From the IMG/VR virus record IMGVR_UViG_2579778535_000019: a stretch of 3,976 nucleotides of DNA. The stretch is one strand, 5' to 3'. The DNA is from a virus (taxonomy: Duplodnaviria; Heunggongvirae; Uroviricota; Caudoviricetes). The notes beneath the pieces were generated by a model. The model did not search any database and was not told the origin of the DNA. It saw nothing but the letters and a program-made list of their open reading frames with translations. The position numbers were made by a program, and so were the translations under genes. Shown in pieces: positions 1 through 3,976 of this stretch. Position 1 is the stretch's first letter, and every line of letters begins with the position of its first letter.

Positions 1-156
1 CGCGCTGCACTGATACGGCTGCAGACGACAACCTTCGTAATCGGCAATCAGTTTCAGCCCCTCCACGGAGGTGTGAAGCTGCTGAAAACCCGGCAGCGTG
101 GCAGCAATAGCCAGCACGGCCCCGACAAGGCAGCGTTTAACGATTGATGGATTCAT
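1..156 (-). CDS. Phage endolysin, SAR-type lysozyme (T4-lysozyme-like fold, P1 Lyz-like); N-terminal 52 codons only, 3' end lies beyond the window start
   Basis: ATG at 156-154 on the minus strand, preceded by GGGAGGA (159-165). Translation by hand: MNPSIVKRCLVGAVLAIAATLPGFQQLHTSVEGLKLIADYEGCRLQPYQCSA. Ala/Gly-rich weakly hydrophobic N-terminal segment followed by the E-G-C ... P-Y-x-C motif characteristic of SAR lysozymes with a caging cysteine. Not in the ORF track because it is truncated by the window edge. Confidence 0.75.
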   Translation of the reverse strand, partial: MNPSIVKRCLVGAVLAIAATLPGFQQLHTSVEGLKLIADYEGCRLQPYQCSA

Positions 157-352
157 AGTCCTCCCGCGAGATCTGCCCGTCGCGCAGAAGCTGGTAGGCT
201 TTGTGTTTGTAGTACCAGTTGATAGCCAGCATCAGCACACCAATCATCAGGCCGCCCAGCGTTGAGGCATCCTTGATGGACAAATCGCCCAGCCAGGCCA
301 GCACGACGGCGATGCAATACGTGATAAAGGCGCTGATTCGCTCAAGCGTCAT
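137..352 (-). CDS. Small class II holin (possible pinholin), 71 aa, two predicted transmembrane helices and a charged C-terminal tail
   Basis: ORF track 137..352; ATG at 352-350. Two hydrophobic stretches (ISAFITYCIAVVLAWLG and LGGLMIGVLMLAINWYY) followed by KHKAYQLLRDGQISREDYESINR. Lies between tail gene X and the endolysin, where P2-like phages carry the holin; its 3' end overlaps the endolysin start by about 20 nt. Confidence 0.65.
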   Translation of the reverse strand: MTLERISAFITYCIAVVLAWLGDLSIKDASTLGGLMIGVLMLAINWYYKHKAYQLLRDGQISREDYESINR

Positions 353-355
353 AAT

Positions 356-559
356 TCAGTCCCATAGCTGGACGGTCTGCACGGTGGTGGTGGTCGGAAT
401 GTCCGGCAGCTCCACCTGCAGCCCGTGAGGTAAAAAGGGGCCATATTCGGCAAGCCCCGGATTTGCCTTCAGTACCTGCTCCGTGACACCCTGCGTGCGC
501 CCGTAATGACGCCAGCAAAGCGCGTCCACCGTGTCATACTGATGCGCACGCACTTTCAT
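356..559 (-). CDS. X: Phage tail protein X (P2 gpX family, LysM-like), 67 aa
   Basis: ORF track 356..559; ATG at 559-557 with a GGAG upstream. Sequence MKVRAHQYDTVDALCWRHYGRTQGVTEQVLKANPGLAEYGPFLPHGLQVELPDIP... matches the remembered gpX pattern (…D.LC.RYYGRT.GV.E.VL.ANPGLAE.G..LPHG..VELPD…), and 67 aa is the expected length. Its start overlaps the L stop (TGATG). Confidence 0.85.
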   Translation of the reverse strand: MKVRAHQYDTVDALCWRHYGRTQGVTEQVLKANPGLAEYGPFLPHGLQVELPDIPTTTTVQTVQLWD

Positions 560-1023
560 CAGATAAGCTCCACTGTGCAGTGCGGCGCATCCTGCACCCG
601 GCGGATGGCCCAGCGGGCGTCACGCCACAAATCACCGCTGGCTTCTGCCAGTTCTTCGCCTCGCTTCACACCGGATGCCGTGGCGTCATAGTCCTGGTAT
701 CGTTCGTTGAGCATGGCGCGTGCCCAGCAGTAAACCGCATTGAAATAGTGCTGAATGCGCTCACTTTTGCCGTCCAGCTGCTCCGACGGAACCTCTGCCA
801 GCGAGGCATATCCCAGCACCTGCTGGCGTCTGCGAAACTCATACAGCTCTGCGTTGACCTCCGAAATTGCCGACAGCGCAACCTGCTTTAAACGCGGCTG
901 CGTCACCGTGCCGTCAGTGCGCATGACACTGCGAAACTCCGACAGGTCCACATCAGGCCAGAACGGCGTGTTTCTGATGATTTCCGCCTGTTCCGGTGCC
1001 TGTTCTGGCGCAACAAACTTCAT
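559..1023 (-). CDS. L: Phage head completion/stabilization protein (P2 gpL family), 154 aa
   Basis: ORF track frame 559..1086, but the likely start is the internal ATG at 1023-1021, which has a strong SD (AGGAGA, 7 nt spacer) and begins MKFVAPEQ. It sits immediately upstream of and translationally coupled to X, as gpL does in P2-like phages. The 21-codon upstream extension starts at a GTG with no SD. Confidence 0.65.
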   Translation of the reverse strand: MKFVAPEQAPEQAEIIRNTPFWPDVDLSEFRSVMRTDGTVTQPRLKQVALSAISEVNAELYEFRRRQQVLGYASLAEVPSEQLDGKSERIQHYFNAVYCWARAMLNERYQDYDATASGVKRGEELAEASGDLWRDARWAIRRVQDAPHCTVELI

Positions 1024-1089
1024 GCTGCTTTCTCCTGAAATAGAGGGCGGTGGACGGGGTTTTGATGTGGCAGTGCCTTTCGCCACCCC

Positions 1090-1112
1090 GTGCCGCCCGT
1101 GCGCGGGGGCAC
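1090..1112. other. GC-rich imperfect hairpin (9 bp stem with one bulge, 4 nt loop) in the region between the cII remnant and L
   Basis: GTGCCGCCCG tgcg CGGGGGCAC read directly from the sequence. No adjacent U-tract on either strand, so it is not a canonical intrinsic terminator. Confidence 0.3.
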
Positions 1113-1240
1113 GTTCTGTCAGCGGCTGTCATTGCGCAGTCTGCGCTCCAGCTGCTGTTTGTCTTTTTTCACGCCACAGCGGGGATCGAGCTGTAACGCA
1201 TGGTTGAGATGATTAAGGGCGGAAGCCGGGTTGCTTTCAC

Positions 1241-1579
1241 TCAGGATACCGCACCTGCAGCAACACGCCCGATCTCTGCGGTTGCACTCATGACGTAATG
1301 TGACAGTTTCTCTTTTGCCACCTCATTAATCGGTACACATGGCAGACAATGAATCTGTGCCAGAAAACCATCTACCAGCGTTGAATCTTCAGTCAGATCG
1401 GTAAGCAGCCAGATTTCTGGTGCGGTTAATAGATGAGGCTGAGCTGGGTTCAGCTTGTTCCGCAGAATCTGCACATTCATGCCTGCACGTTCTGCCAGTT
1501 GCACCAGATTGTGGCGCAGTGCAAATGCACGACAGGCTTCATCAAAATGTGGATGTTTGGAAACTTGGTAATCAAACAT
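1241..1579 (-). CDS. cII: Phage regulatory protein CII-like (186 CII / CP76 family), apparently C-terminally truncated (112 aa)
   Basis: ORF track 1241..1585 begins at TTG; the likely start is the ATG at 1579-1577, giving [49 protein letters not shown]... with an HTH-like segment. It is the second gene of the operon after the Cox/Apl-like gene, as in phage 186. Phage 186 CII is about 169 aa (established knowledge), so this copy appears shortened. Confidence 0.65.
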
Positions 1580-1611
1580 GGTCAATGCCTCTGATGTATT
1601 TCAGAATCGAA

Positions 1612-1833
1612 CTAATTAAGGTTTAGATTGCATTCTGAAAGCGCATCAACGGTCATGGCTGCTATGTTGATCATCACTTTTTCGCGTTTTTTATCTTTGC
1701 GCAAACGGTGACGGATAAGGCGTCCGTCAGCCAACATGTCATTGATGGTATCGATGGACAGCCCTGTCAGCTCGCTATAGCGCTCAATAGTCACATGAGG
1801 CGTGGTAAGAGTGATTGAAATGTTAGGTCTCAT
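1612..1833 (-). CDS. Cox/Apl-like small DNA-binding protein (excisionase / repressor of the lysogenic promoter), 73 aa
   Basis: ORF track 1612..1833. First gene of the leftward operon, divergent from the repressor gene. Its size and the central segment [28 protein letters not shown] resemble the Cox/Apl winged-helix family, and the position matches cox (P2) / apl (186). Confidence 0.6.
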
Positions 1834-1958
1834 GATGCAACATTCCTCGTTTAATGATGATTAATCAGGACGAATACGGATCGTTTGTATTTTGTGAACA
1901 CCATAAACATACGATCGCACAATGAAATCGTCAAGATAAAAGTTCACTTGGAGTGACC
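1834..1958. promoter_or_regulatory. Lysis-lysogeny switch region between the divergent cox/apl-like and cI-like genes
   Basis: 125 bp AT-rich intergenic region. Contains a direct repeat ATACGGATCG (1874-1883) / ATACGATCG (1908-1916), two GATC sites, and an imperfect inverted repeat around 1888-1912 (GTATTTTGTG ... CATAAACATAC). Confidence 0.5.
1906..1934 (-). promoter_or_regulatory. Candidate sigma70 early lytic promoter (pR/Pe-like) reading leftward toward cox/apl
   Basis: On the minus strand: -35 TTGACG (1934-1929), 17-nt spacer, -10 TATGTT (1911-1906). Predicted start near 1899, giving a leader of about 65 nt before the cox/apl ATG at 1833. The second copy of the ATACGATCG repeat overlaps the -10. 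Confidence 0.4.
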
Positions 1959-2528
1959 ATGAATTTGGAGAAAGGCGGACGAGGCGCTATAGAGCGCATG
2001 GTAGAAGCTTATGGATTCAAAACTCGACAGGCGTTGTGCGATCATTTAGGAATCTCTAAAAGTACACTCGCCACACGCTACATGCGTGACTCATTCCCAG
2101 CAGAATGGGTAATCCAGTGCGCCCTTGAAACGGGCACCTCGCTTAATTGGCTCACAACCGGACATGGTTCAAAGCAAACTTCAGGTAATACAAATACTAT
2201 GGAAGTTGCTAAATATGTATTATCTGATGGTGCCTTGCGTGAAGACGGTTTTTATATTTTTGATAAGGGATTTTTACCCTCTACGTTTAAAAAACCTTTT
2301 GTCATCACAGATAACAATTCTGAATTTATTTGTGATAAAGAATTTGATGATATACGTGATGGTAAATGGGTAATAAGTATTGATGGCGAAGTAACGATCC
2401 GTGACATTACTCGTTTACCCGGTGGAAGAATCTTCGTCGAGGGTGGAAACAGAGCCTTCGAATGTAAGATAGAAGACATTGAAATAATTGGTAAAATTAT
2501 AAGTTTAACAGTCAAGTATGTTAAATAG
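1959..2528 (+). CDS. cI: Phage CI-type repressor (186 CI-like: N-terminal HTH domain plus C-terminal oligomerization domain), 189 aa
   Basis: ORF track 1953..2528 begins at GTG; the likely start is the ATG at 1959 with GGAG 5 nt upstream. The N-terminal segment ERMVEAYGFKTRQALCDHLGISKSTLATRYMRDSFPAEWVIQCALETGTSLNWLTTG fits the 186 CI-type HTH domain. Length is close to 186 CI (192 aa), and the gene is divergent from cox/apl and upstream of int. Confidence 0.8.
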   Translation: MNLEKGGRGAIERMVEAYGFKTRQALCDHLGISKSTLATRYMRDSFPAEWVIQCALETGTSLNWLTTGHGSKQTSGNTNTMEVAKYVLSDGALREDGFYIFDKGFLPSTFKKPFVITDNNSEFICDKEFDDIRDGKWVISIDGEVTIRDITRLPGGRIFVEGGNRAFECKIEDIEIIGKIISLTVKYVK

Positions 2529-2543
2529 TACCGGGAGGAAACT

Positions 2544-2735
2544 ATGCTTGGTAAGGTATTTTTTGTGGTTTTGTCATGTTCTTTGTTATTAAACCCACTA
2601 ACTACCTATGCTAGAAATTATCCCTGCTCAGGGAAAAAGGGAGGTGTTTCTCACTGTACCTCAGATGGCAAATTCGTTTGCAATGATGGAACTATTAGTA
2701 AATCCAAAAAAATCTGTACTAAAAACTCACGATAA
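2544..2735 (+). CDS. Small secreted cysteine-rich protein of unknown function (63 aa precursor; predicted signal peptide, ~40 aa Lys-rich mature part with 4 Cys)
   Basis: ORF track 2544..2735. Strong SD GGGAGG 5 nt before the ATG, 15 nt after the cI stop. N-terminus [23 protein letters not shown] has n/h/c signal-peptide architecture with a T-Y-A cleavage motif; mature part [40 protein letters not shown]. Lies in an AT-rich segment. Confidence 0.5.
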
Positions 2736-2923
2736 CTTTTGCTTTTATATCTGCGTCTAAAATAAAAATGAGCCGCAGGTTAACCGCAAAAGTTACATGC
2801 TCACATAGCAAAAAGAATAGCCAACTTCATTATGGCTTCAGTGAGATGTATGGTCGTAGGATTTCATACATTGACACTGGTTATACATACAGTAAAAATG
2901 CTCTCTACTGGAGGGCATTTTTT

Positions 2924-3976
2924 ATGGCAGTACGAAAACTCACCACAGGGAAATGGCTTTGCGAATGTTACCCCGCCGGACGAAGTGGGCGTCGTGTGCG
3001 TAAACAATTCGCCACCAAAGGCGAAGCTCTGGCTTTTGAGCGTCACACTATGGAAGAAACCGAATCAAAGCCATGGCTGGGCGAATCAGTGGATCGTCGA
3101 ACCCTGAAAGACGTGGTTGAGCTATGGTTCAAACTACATGGTAAATCTCTGACTGCTGGGCAGCATGTCTATGACAAATTGCTGCTGATGGTTGACGCTC
3201 TGGGCAATCCTCTTGCAACCGATCTCACCTCTAAAATGTTTGCCCACTATCGAGATAAACGCCTGACAGGCGAGATCTACTTCAGCGAGAAATGGAAGAA
3301 AGGAGCAAGCCCGGTCACCATTAACCTGGAGCAAAGCTATCTAAGTAGTGTTTTTAGCGAACTATCCCGTCTGGGCGAATGGGCGTATCCGAACCCACTG
3401 GAGAACATGCGAAAATTCACCATCGCAGAAAAAGAGATGGCATGGCTTACCCATGAGCAGATTGTTGAATTACTGGCTGATTGCAAACGTCAGGACCCAA
3501 TTCTAGCACTGGTAGTTAAGATATGCTTAAGCACAGGCGCACGCTGGCGAGAAGCCGTAAATCTTACTCGTTCACAGGTGACCAAATACCGAATTACCTT
3601 TGTAAGAACGAAGGGGAAGAAAAACAGAAGTATCCCTATCAGTAAAGAGCTTTACGAAGAGATCATGGCGCTTGATGGGTTCAATTTCTTCACAGACTGC
3701 TATTTTCAATTTTTATCCGTGATGGAAAAAACGTCTATCGTGCTCCCTCGCGGTCAACTCACACACGTTCTGCGCCATACGTTTGCGGCGCACTTCATGA
3801 TGTCGGGTGGAAACATTCTGGCCTTACAAAAAATTCTCGGACACCACGATATAAAAATGACTATGCGTTACGCACATCTGGCACCGGATCATCTGGAAAC
3901 GGCGCTCCGTTTCAATCCTCTGGCAACGCTGCCAAGTGGCGACAAAGTGGCGGCAGCGGTTGGCATTACCCCGTAA
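2924..3976 (+). CDS. int: Tyrosine site-specific recombinase / phage integrase (P2-type), 350 aa
   Basis: ORF track 2768..3976, but homology-like sequence begins at MAVRKLTTGKWLCECYPAGRSGRRVRKQFATKGEALAFE (ATG at 2924, GGAGGG 7 nt upstream). C-terminal catalytic signature present: ...STGARWREA..., HVLRHTFAAHFMMSGGNILALQKILGHHDIKMTMRYAH with the R, H-x-x-R, H and Y residues. Stop TAA at 3974-3976 is exactly at the window end. Confidence 0.9.
   Translation: MAVRKLTTGKWLCECYPAGRSGRRVRKQFATKGEALAFERHTMEETESKPWLGESVDRRTLKDVVELWFKLHGKSLTAGQHVYDKLLLMVDALGNPLATDLTSKMFAHYRDKRLTGEIYFSEKWKKGASPVTINLEQSYLSSVFSELSRLGEWAYPNPLENMRKFTIAEKEMAWLTHEQIVELLADCKRQDPILALVVKICLSTGARWREAVNLTRSQVTKYRITFVRTKGKKNRSIPISKELYEEIMALDGFNFFTDCYFQFLSVMEKTSIVLPRGQLTHVLRHTFAAHFMMSGGNILALQKILGHHDIKMTMRYAHLAPDHLETALRFNPLATLPSGDKVAAAVGITP

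Follow-up and report, generated by a model that had tools for sequence, protein, structure and literature searches.

Lysis genes behind an early promoter in a cryptic P2/186-family prophage remnant of Escherichia coli: probable prophage decay at recurrent deletion breakpoints

The question raised by this locus is whether a phage lysis cassette has been placed directly under the repressor-controlled early promoter of a P2/186-type immunity region. In the preliminary description, the minus-strand genes were proposed to form a CI-gated lysis module, in which derepression would drive the expression of holin and endolysin and could serve altruistic lysis or tailocin release. The stretch of DNA analyzed here (the window, 3,976 nucleotides) is 100% identical to positions 7604-11579 of L004, an E. 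coli contig which displays the entire element. On the basis of this comparison, the window very likely represents the middle part of a cryptic prophage remnant of about 5 kb, belonging to the P2/186 family (Peduoviridae) and carried by a minority E. coli lineage. The gene order of the remnant is int-ydcA-cI-apl-cII'::M'-L-X-holin-K'::'D-ogr, located between the host genes rcdA and ybjL. Its character as a cryptic prophage is evident from the rcdA/int and ogr/ybjL flanks, two fusion junctions and about 29 kb that are missing compared to the intact relative L010. The window contains the following features:

1..156, minus strand: K', the first 52 codons of a SAR-type GH24 endolysin gene, with the start codon at 156, overlapping the 3' end of the holin gene
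137-352, minus strand: holin, 71 aa, intact (PF16080, HP1-family holin, E 4e-9; phrog_20, E 2e-26)
356-559, minus strand: tail protein X homologue, 67 aa, intact (PF05489, Phage_tail_X, E 2e-34), identical to X of phage Cartapus
559-1023, minus strand: head completion protein L homologue, 154 aa, intact ORF (PF05926, Phage_GPL, E 2e-50), differing by three amino acids from both intact references
1024..1118, minus strand: native M-L intergenic spacer with a GC-rich hairpin lacking a U-tract, the same spacer as in intact phages
1119..1246, minus strand: M', the 3' end of the terminase small-subunit gene M (last 41 codons and the stop codon), which is not translated and is out of frame with cII'
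1245..1252, no strand assigned: deletion junction cII'::M', the span over which two BLAST matches overlap
1241-1579, minus strand: cII', truncated CII activator, 112 aa compared to 169 in the intact protein (PF06892, Phage_CP76, profile positions 1-110 of 146)
1612-1833, minus strand: apl/cox-type excisionase-repressor, 73 aa, intact (phrog_575, Cox-like excisionase, E 6e-31), identical to the protein of the intact prophage
1934-1906 (within 1879..1934), minus strand: candidate pR-like early lytic promoter TTGACG-17-TATGTT, a consensus match and the only promoter-like site on that strand
1959..2528, plus strand: cI repressor of the 186/HP1 type, 189 aa, intact (PF07022 plus PF16452), with a top match in the phage collection of just 57% identity
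2544..2735, plus strand: ydcA-family small ORF between cI and int with an N-terminal hydrophobic segment (annotated PF27300; phrog_6000, function not known)
2924..3976, plus strand: tyrosine integrase, 350 aa, ending at the window edge and adjoining rcdA in the source contigs

The ORFs and profile matches agree with the preliminary description in that apl/cox, the cII remnant, L, X, the holin and the start of the endolysin gene are all located on the minus strand. The junctions between them had been called short or overlapping, which is correct for the holin, whose 3' end is overlapped by the start of K', but not for cII' and L, which are separated by 217 untranslated nucleotides. The holin contains two hydrophobic segments (hydropathy >1.5 in 15-residue windows starting at residues 3-13 and 28-33), and its amino-acid sequence is the same as in the intact prophage L010 and in phage Cartapus.

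The remnant was shaped by two internal deletions of about 14.4 kb each. In strain PSJ-12 an intact relative occupies the same locus, and the two halves of the window map onto it 14.4 kb apart in the same orientation. The first deletion joined codon 112 of cII to the last 41 codons of M. At this junction, matches to E. coli remnants start at 1245-1247 and phage matches end at 1252; compared with intact cII and M, the true microhomology is only 2 nt (TC on the minus strand, 1245-1246). The stop codon of cII' is supplied by the M-derived sequence, which is 98.7% identical to the 3' end of Cartapus M; the C-terminus of M ends in a 42-residue sequence (letters omitted). The second deletion fused codon 53 of the endolysin gene in frame to codon 116 of gpD, 3 nt beyond window position 1. 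The resulting fusion ORF encodes 304 aa (L004 11424-12338), including gpD residues 116-366. In the locus L019 the same K'::'D junction occurs while O-N-M-L-X-holin are still present in late-operon order, which shows that the deletions arose as separate events. Between them, they account for the loss of replication, SOS-antirepressor, capsid, terminase, spanin and tail genes. Many further deletion alleles were found at this locus, in strains L9, G3/10, A134_1EC, SF10, ETEC1706, BL21 and IAL7254 and in loci L015-L021, a pattern which fits decay and not design. The allele itself is rare. It was found in none of 5,426 complete genomes, and the exact 112-aa CII' is present on 33 contigs overall, which are up to 195 kb long and come from independent samples. 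One carrier is the isolate behind assembly GCA_026722645.1.

The position of the second junction decides the fate of the endolysin, which the preliminary description had regarded as present. The window holds only its first 52 codons, and in every source contig the gene stops at codon 53 and continues as gpD, so that 53 of 170 residues are retained (intact K proteins have 170-172 aa). The only Pfam match of the fusion protein is Phage_GPD (residues 54-283), with no match to a lysozyme domain. The case illustrates how a truncation may escape notice when it lies just past the edge of a window, here by 3 nt. Compared with the intact relative, lysA, the spanin genes lysB/lysC, R, S and every tail gene except X and the 3' two-thirds of D were deleted. 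Of a lysis cassette, the intact holin is left, and the endolysin catalytic domain and the spanin genes are missing. Of a tailocin, sheath, tube, baseplate and fibre genes are missing, with nothing left but X and the last 251 residues of gpD. Because the endolysin is truncated and lysA, lysB/lysC, R, S and the tail genes are deleted, neither lysis by this cassette nor tailocin release is possible, and the proposed CI-gated release device has to be abandoned.

We also analyzed which transcription signals are left around the lysis genes. No terminator-like site was detected on the minus strand within 1-2620, and the M-L intergenic RNA folds no better than shuffled sequences (z -0.81). The GC-rich hairpin in this spacer has no U-tract and gives no terminator match, and both points bear out what had been noted by eye. 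By eye, no P2-type late promoter had been identified upstream of L either, and a search for the TGT-N12-ACA dyad gave no match in the window and none in the remnant part of L004. As a positive control, the same pattern marked all four expected late-promoter positions in L010 (11836, 17898, 23806, 23864). Thus, dyads are found at P_F, P_V, P_O and P_P in the intact prophage, and neither the window nor any other part of the remnant contains one. No Ogr/B-dependent TGT-N12-ACA promoter of a P2-type late transcription unit remains, though the ogr gene is present. Since the deletion removed P_O together with O, N, most of M and everything else between cII and M, the genes have been structurally rewired: it holds that, with the late promoter removed, L-X-holin lie in the same orientation downstream of the pR-like site with no detectable terminator between. 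Hence the claimed rewiring under the early promoter is upheld as a structural change and fails as a functional lysis module. The pR-like site was found by consensus match. An 18-nt inverted repeat (1879-1896 / 1899-1916) encloses its -10 hexamer and may serve as a CI operator. The promoter scan gave no pL-like site. In the cII'-L gap, the 3' end of M (out of frame) is followed by the native M-L spacer, and there is no translated ORF, save for a possible reinitiation frame of 23 codons. The gap is initially C-rich (32% C compared to 22% G), with an excess of C over G in the first ~100 nt.

Mitomycin C or SOS induction had been considered as the trigger of the proposed module. The intact relative has a single LexA box, which precedes a DinI-like, Tum-type gene in the part of the prophage that was deleted here, and no LexA box was found in the remnant contig. 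The SOS-controlled antirepressor has apparently been lost from the remnant, which leaves such a trigger without its input.

Judged from gene content and junctions, ordinary prophage decay, and not a lysis device, very probably accounts for the locus. As a by-product of the deletions, L, X and the holin gene lost their late promoter and now lie downstream of the putative CI-controlled early promoter. With cI intact and no antirepressor of its own, the remnant would be expected to keep this promoter repressed and to carry L-X-holin as silent passengers. Derepression in trans could let transcription read through into L-X-holin-K'::'D, while the untranslated gap could permit Rho-dependent polarity that blocks it. 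The sole plausible phenotype would be toxicity of a lone pinholin-like holin with two transmembrane domains (TMDs), not lysis. No lysis or tailocin release is expected from derepression of pR because at most this holin would be expressed. L and X are still intact ORFs and the holin is still identical to proteins of functional phages, which counts against pure decay; purifying selection and a recent origin cannot be told apart as the cause.

The original idea, that derepression drives holin plus endolysin for altruistic lysis or tailocin release, draws on the shared orientation of the genes and on the lack of a terminator or late promoter between pR and the holin gene. However, with an endolysin cut at residue 53 of 170, no lysA, lysB or lysC, no tail genes except a fragment of D, no SOS input and a rare allele, it is almost certainly wrong. 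A second rival is a domesticated kill switch. CI would be inactivated by the antirepressor of a phage with the same immunity type, whether incoming or co-resident, pR would fire, and the lone pinholin would depolarise the membrane early and abort the infection. Such a role is compatible with the intact cI, apl, pR-like promoter and holin, with a holin of the HP1/phage-21 type, which is a type paired with SAR endolysins, and with the LexA-controlled DinI-like gene of intact relatives, which could act in trans. Nevertheless, it appears highly improbable, as the gap may cause Rho polarity and the allele is rare and clonal-looking. Moreover, in sister alleles broken at the same position, cII' is joined to pieces of unrelated genes (D, U, FI, A), a finding that speaks against selection for a fusion to the holin. 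At the other extreme, Rho-dependent termination in the gap or decay of pR could insulate L-X-holin, so that nothing past cII' is expressed and the region is dead DNA. The untranslated 217 nt and the excess of C over G at their start speak for this reading, but the excess is modest and vanishes in the second half of the gap, and the M-L spacer must be crossed by the late transcript in the native operon of intact phages. Complete silencing appears rather unlikely, though not remote. The chance that the locus is an assembly chimera of two P2-like prophages in one genome is negligible. Its halves do have different nearest relatives (100% compared to 97.8-99.6%) and overlap in only a few bases, but the junction occurs on contigs from NCBI, ENA and Logan assemblies (the same 33, up to 195 kb), and the expected host genes flank one contiguous element of 5 kb.

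The breakpoints themselves recur. Many independent deletion alleles, joined to different partners, break at exactly the same nucleotide of cII or of D. The cII-derived side of the cII'::M' junction begins TACCGCACCTGCAGC on the plus strand, and the cII flank of this recurrent breakpoint is GTGTTGCTGCAGGTGCGGT; the D-side acceptor is TACCCGCC. At least 11 different upstream genes are fused to the gpD acceptor (TA/CCCGCCGTGAAAA, the slash marking the break) at exactly this nucleotide. One of these fusions, V'::'D, lies in an otherwise intact prophage beside smpB, at a different att site, and the same K'::'D junction was found in two haplotypes that are 3.4% apart. The donor ends, GGT(A), are the reverse complement of the first bases of the acceptor in six of the seven junctions read at the DNA level, and most D junctions are KpnI-containing quasi-palindromes (GCGGGTACCCGC).

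This reuse is unexplained, as none of the candidate mechanisms checked fits. For RecBCD/Chi, no canonical Chi was found in the 40-kb locus; a Chi-like octamer (6/8) lies near the cII site, with nothing comparable near the D break. The att core ATGGGTTTTTTGTT, relevant for Int recombination at a secondary att site, is unrelated. The same applies to off-target nicking by gpA, where the nick site of P2 (GCGCCTCG^GAGTCC) and the homologous ori of the remnant's phage (GCGCCCCTTGGACTCGTGGCAATAAC) do not resemble the hot spots and the breakpoints in the A gene are not located at the ori. The cix-like sites at L010 12531 and 14373, at which the tail-fibre invertase might have acted as on quasi-sites, are unrelated to the hot spots as well. 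The motif GCGG(G)TA alone is insufficient, with ~15 copies per strand in the prophage. Self-targeting by a Type I-F CRISPR system would fit in geometry, with CC next to the retained side, but no matching spacer was present between I-F repeats in 5,426 genomes, and the model is inconsistent in itself, since protospacer and PAM survive the deletion. Descent from a single minimal cII'::'D remnant is contradicted by the V'::'D fusion beside smpB, in a prophage that is intact in other respects, and by the existence of several haplotypes among the retained flanks. Exact 17-mer scans of metagenome and species-representative genome collections gave chance matches only, and no account of these breakpoints was found in the published literature. 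An undescribed deletion process, directed by sequence and repeatedly pruning P2-like prophages, might have produced the junctions at cII S112 and gpD T116, a proposal that we put forward tentatively and at somewhat less than even chance. The recurrent junctions would be accounted for by a dedicated enzyme, or by a structure-specific event of replication or repair that acts on short inverted repeats lying far apart.

The remnant itself is one more defective prophage, for which gene content excludes a function in lysis or as a tailocin. The decay of prophages is commonly viewed as a matter of random deletions on which selection then acts. Here, independent deletions have returned many times to two exact nucleotide positions, and their junctions follow a clear sequence rule. 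Should a specific mechanism be responsible, it would bear on how cryptic prophages are shaped and might explain the persistence of int-cI-apl and 'D-ogr stubs in E. coli, including BL21.

Several known systems can be compared with the remnant. It shares with R-type tailocins (pyocins derived from P2 tails) the P2-family ancestry and a repressor gene near lysis-gene remnants, but unlike them it has no sheath, tube, baseplate or fibre genes and no functional endolysin. In pinholin and SAR-endolysin cassettes (S21/R21 of phage 21; HP1-type holins), the holin likewise resembles that of the remnant with its 71 aa and two TMDs. The N-terminus of K' has a weakly hydrophobic SAR-like segment and, as in SAR endolysins, the start of what is presumably the E-x8-C-x5-T motif. 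Unlike in these cassettes, the endolysin catalytic domain and the spanins are absent, and the holin half alone is left. The immunity region corresponds to the switch of coliphage 186 (CI, Apl, CII; pR/pL; Tum under LexA) in gene set, order and orientation, with a CI composed of an HTH domain (PF07022) and a C-terminal domain (PF16452), a Cox/Apl protein and a PF06892 CII. Tum of 186 is under LexA, and in the intact relative of the remnant a LexA box precedes a DinI-like gene. In contrast to 186, CII has been shortened to 112 aa, the Tum-like module is gone, no pL was found by the scan, and CI differs in immunity type, being no more than 57% identical to that of any phage in the collection. The closest parallel in locus is the defective P2-like prophage of BL21/E. 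coli B, which belongs to the same family and occupies the same rcdA-ybjL site; unlike the allele of BL21, that of the remnant is not present in any of the complete genomes searched. A further example is the ogrK-yegZ ('D-ogr) remnant of K-12, which is also a cryptic P2-like remnant. The BL21 prophage keeps 'A, a retron, Q, P, O::'K and lysB onward, whereas the remnant keeps M'-L-X-holin-K'. Both retain int-cI-apl-cII' at one end and ogr at the other, and in both, internal deletions have fused truncated genes.

The window matches positions 7604-11579 of L004, an E. coli source contig, with 100% identity. In the source contigs the element is about 5 kb in size, is bounded by rcdA and ybjL and has the order int-ydcA-cI-apl-cII'-M'-L-X-holin-K'::'D-ogr (prime marks denote truncated genes; K, endolysin; M, terminase small subunit; D, gpD). 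The same rcdA-ybjL site carries an intact prophage of ~34 kb in PSJ-12 (L010), to which the two halves of the window map co-oriented and 14.4 kb apart. The right part (1245-3976) shows 99.5-100% identity to many E. coli chromosomes. The left part (1-1252) has about 98% identity to Peduoviridae phages, a value that reaches 99.6% against E. coli prophages. Both parts joined were found in none of 5,426 complete E. coli genomes. The exact 112-aa CII' protein is recorded on 33 contigs from NCBI, ENA and Logan assemblies, the largest of them 195 kb long, and the cII'::M' junction is real. The element adds a new allele to a class of cryptic prophages that is already known. Since ORF listing and family searches agree with them, the gene order and strands of the preliminary description are correct:

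1-156, minus strand: endolysin, first 52 codons, crossing the window edge (ORF listing and family search)
137-352, minus strand: holin, 71 aa (HP1-family)
356-559, minus strand: X (Phage_tail_X)
559-1023, minus strand: L (Phage_GPL)
1241-1579, minus strand: truncated cII, 112 aa (ORF listing and family search)
1612-1833, minus strand: apl/cox-type gene (PHROG Cox-like excisionase and repressor)
1959-2528, plus strand: cI (PF07022 plus PF16452)
2544-2735, plus strand: ydcA-family small ORF (ORF listing and family search)
2924-3976, plus strand: tyrosine integrase (ORF listing and family search)

L differs from both intact references by V69M, S80A and R141S, which are too few for inferring relaxed selection; neither X nor the holin has a change. 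CI has no close relative in the phage collection, where vB_EcoM-813R9 is its best match with 57% identity, although many E. coli chromosomes carry it. It seems to represent an immunity type known chiefly from prophages and remnants. The YdcA-family ORF between cI and int encodes 63 aa, which include several cysteines and a hydrophobic stretch at the N terminus. All remnants examined retain it, and it could serve in lysogenic conversion.

Two deletions shaped the element. At junction 1 (window 1245-1246, microhomology of 2 nt) codon 112 of cII is joined to the final 41 codons of M. The cII'::M' fusion is out of frame and CII' therefore terminates at a TGA of the M sequence, followed by 217 untranslated nt up to the start codon of L. 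Junction 2, K'::'D, lies 3 nt beyond the window (L004 11580-11590; L010 5678). Here the first 53 of the 170 endolysin residues are fused in frame to residues 116-366 of gpD, which results in an ORF of 304 aa with Phage_GPD as its sole Pfam match. Compared with L010, the element lacks the 3' portion of cII, fil, the genes for replication and a LexA-box/DinI-like module; cos, Q, P, O, N and most of M; and most of K, lysA, lysB/lysC, R, S and all tail genes up to mid-D. The two deletions are separable events, because the sister allele L019 has the identical K'::'D junction while its O-N-M-L-X-holin genes retain the late-operon order.

The finding as originally stated is of low interest; the part deserving follow-up is the recurrent, rule-following breakpoints. 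The cII breakpoint (window 1245-1252; L010 ~35694) is common to at least 8 deletion alleles within ±2 nt. Its retained side always begins with TACCGCACCTGCAGC, its partners are M, FI, U, A, a moron region and three different positions of D, and the microhomology is 2-7 nt. The D breakpoint is even more widely reused. Among the proteins that cluster with the K'::'D fusion at 90% identity it has at least 11 different N-terminal partners, including K, V (two positions), W, I, a tail fibre, FI, U and O, and every one of them is joined exactly at gpD T116 (TA|CCCGCCGTGAAAA). The V'::'D fusion occurs in an otherwise intact prophage adjoining smpB (L014), a different attachment site, and the D hot spot is thus a property of the D sequence and not of a single ancestral remnant. 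Donors end in GGT(A) in 6 of the 7 D junctions read at the DNA level (GCGCGGGTA and GGCGGTA twice each, GACGGTA and TGCGGTA once each), against a GGTA background of 0.074 among TA sites (P about 1e-6). Read on the opposite strand, GGT(A) gives the bases with which the acceptor begins, TACCCGCC, and the junctions therefore form quasi-palindromes with GGTACC (KpnI), up to the perfect 12-mer palindrome GCGGGTACCCGC in two alleles. Two haplotypes (L004 10336-12650 and L019 4914-7227) share exactly this K'::'D junction and yet have 79 mismatches in 2,314 aligned positions (3.4%), which suggests that the event recurred or that both sides of the junction recombined later. Among complete genomes, 73 of 1,293 are interrupted within a 300-nt probe at the cII site and 16 of 1,108 at the D site.

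None of the candidate mechanisms considered accounts for these hot spots. Canonical Chi is absent from the 40-kb locus, which speaks against RecBCD, and the att core, the invertase crossover sites, the P2 nick site and the homologous ori of this phage are all unrelated to them; breakpoints in the A gene lie elsewhere. The short motif GCGG(G)TA by itself is too frequent for defining a hot spot, and database scans with a 17-mer were uninformative. The geometry would fit a type I-F CRISPR system, but no matching spacer turned up between I-F repeats in 5,426 genomes, and the model contradicts itself in that its target persists after deletion.

Sister deletion alleles at rcdA-ybjL are as follows:

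L9: cII...A'::'D-ogr
G3/10: complex, with an inverted piece
A134_1EC: cII'::'D-ogr
SF10: cII'::'FI...D-ogr
ETEC1706: cII'::'U-D-ogr
BL21: cII'::'A...retron...O'::'K...
IAL7254: cII' joined near the cos region

Such varied arrangements argue that the DNA between the retained ends is probably variable debris and not a selected module. G3/10 (L002 8001-8627) has an inverted O/N fragment of 483 nt, with an L fragment on one side and the early genes on the other. Reverse transcriptases occur as cargo in related prophages of this locus, where they lie between the portal gene and cos: a retron St85-family RT with effector in BL21 (L011 4258-6306) and an RT-family gene in PSJ-12 (L010 26684-27661).

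The preliminary description had proposed that L-X-holin came under control of the CI-regulated early promoter pR, with neither a terminator between the genes nor a late promoter upstream of L. Both absences were borne out. No terminator-like site was reported on the minus strand of window 1-2620, and the M-L spacer with its proposed hairpin, which the late transcript must traverse in intact phages, folds no better than shuffles (z -0.81). The P2-type late-promoter dyad TGT-N12-ACA was found neither in the window nor in the remainder of the remnant; in L010, which served as positive control, the same search matched only the four expected places (one ahead of FI, one ahead of V and two between O and P). 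The sole minus-strand promoter-like site upstream of L-X-holin is TTGACG-17-TATGTT (1934-1906), located between cI and apl. An 18-nt inverted repeat (1879-1916), a plausible candidate CI operator, contains its -10 hexamer. The structural idea that L-X-holin has no promoter of its own and that pR is the only evident transcription source is thus sound, and the rewiring is plausibly a consequence of deletion. A caveat is that the untranslated 217-nt gap, in which C moderately exceeds G at the start (32% and 22%), could support Rho-dependent polarity. Two copies of the palindromic GCGCTATAG(C/A)GC, 200 bp apart (1770-1783 in apl and 1984-1997 in the 5' end of cI), flank the pR-like promoter and could be operator or Apl sites.

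The functional part of the proposal, lysis or tailocin release, is not supported by the gene content, and the original observation is only partly confirmed. The holin is intact and identical to holins of functional phages. Of the endolysin only the hydrophobic segment at the N terminus and two initial positions of the E-x8-C-x5-T motif of the family are left; spanins are missing, and no sheath, tube, baseplate or fibre gene is left. Because cI is intact, the remnant is most likely stably repressed. Derepression in trans would at most cause toxicity from the lone pinholin-like holin, and a kill switch of this type is very improbable. The suggested SOS trigger is also missing, as the remnant contig has no LexA box and the single one of L010 (CTGTTTATATTTACAG at 30853) falls in the deleted segment. 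There it precedes a 62-aa ORF and a DinI-like gene (L010 30378-30868), an arrangement of LexA box, small ORF and DinI-like gene which resembles the p95-tum module of phage 186.
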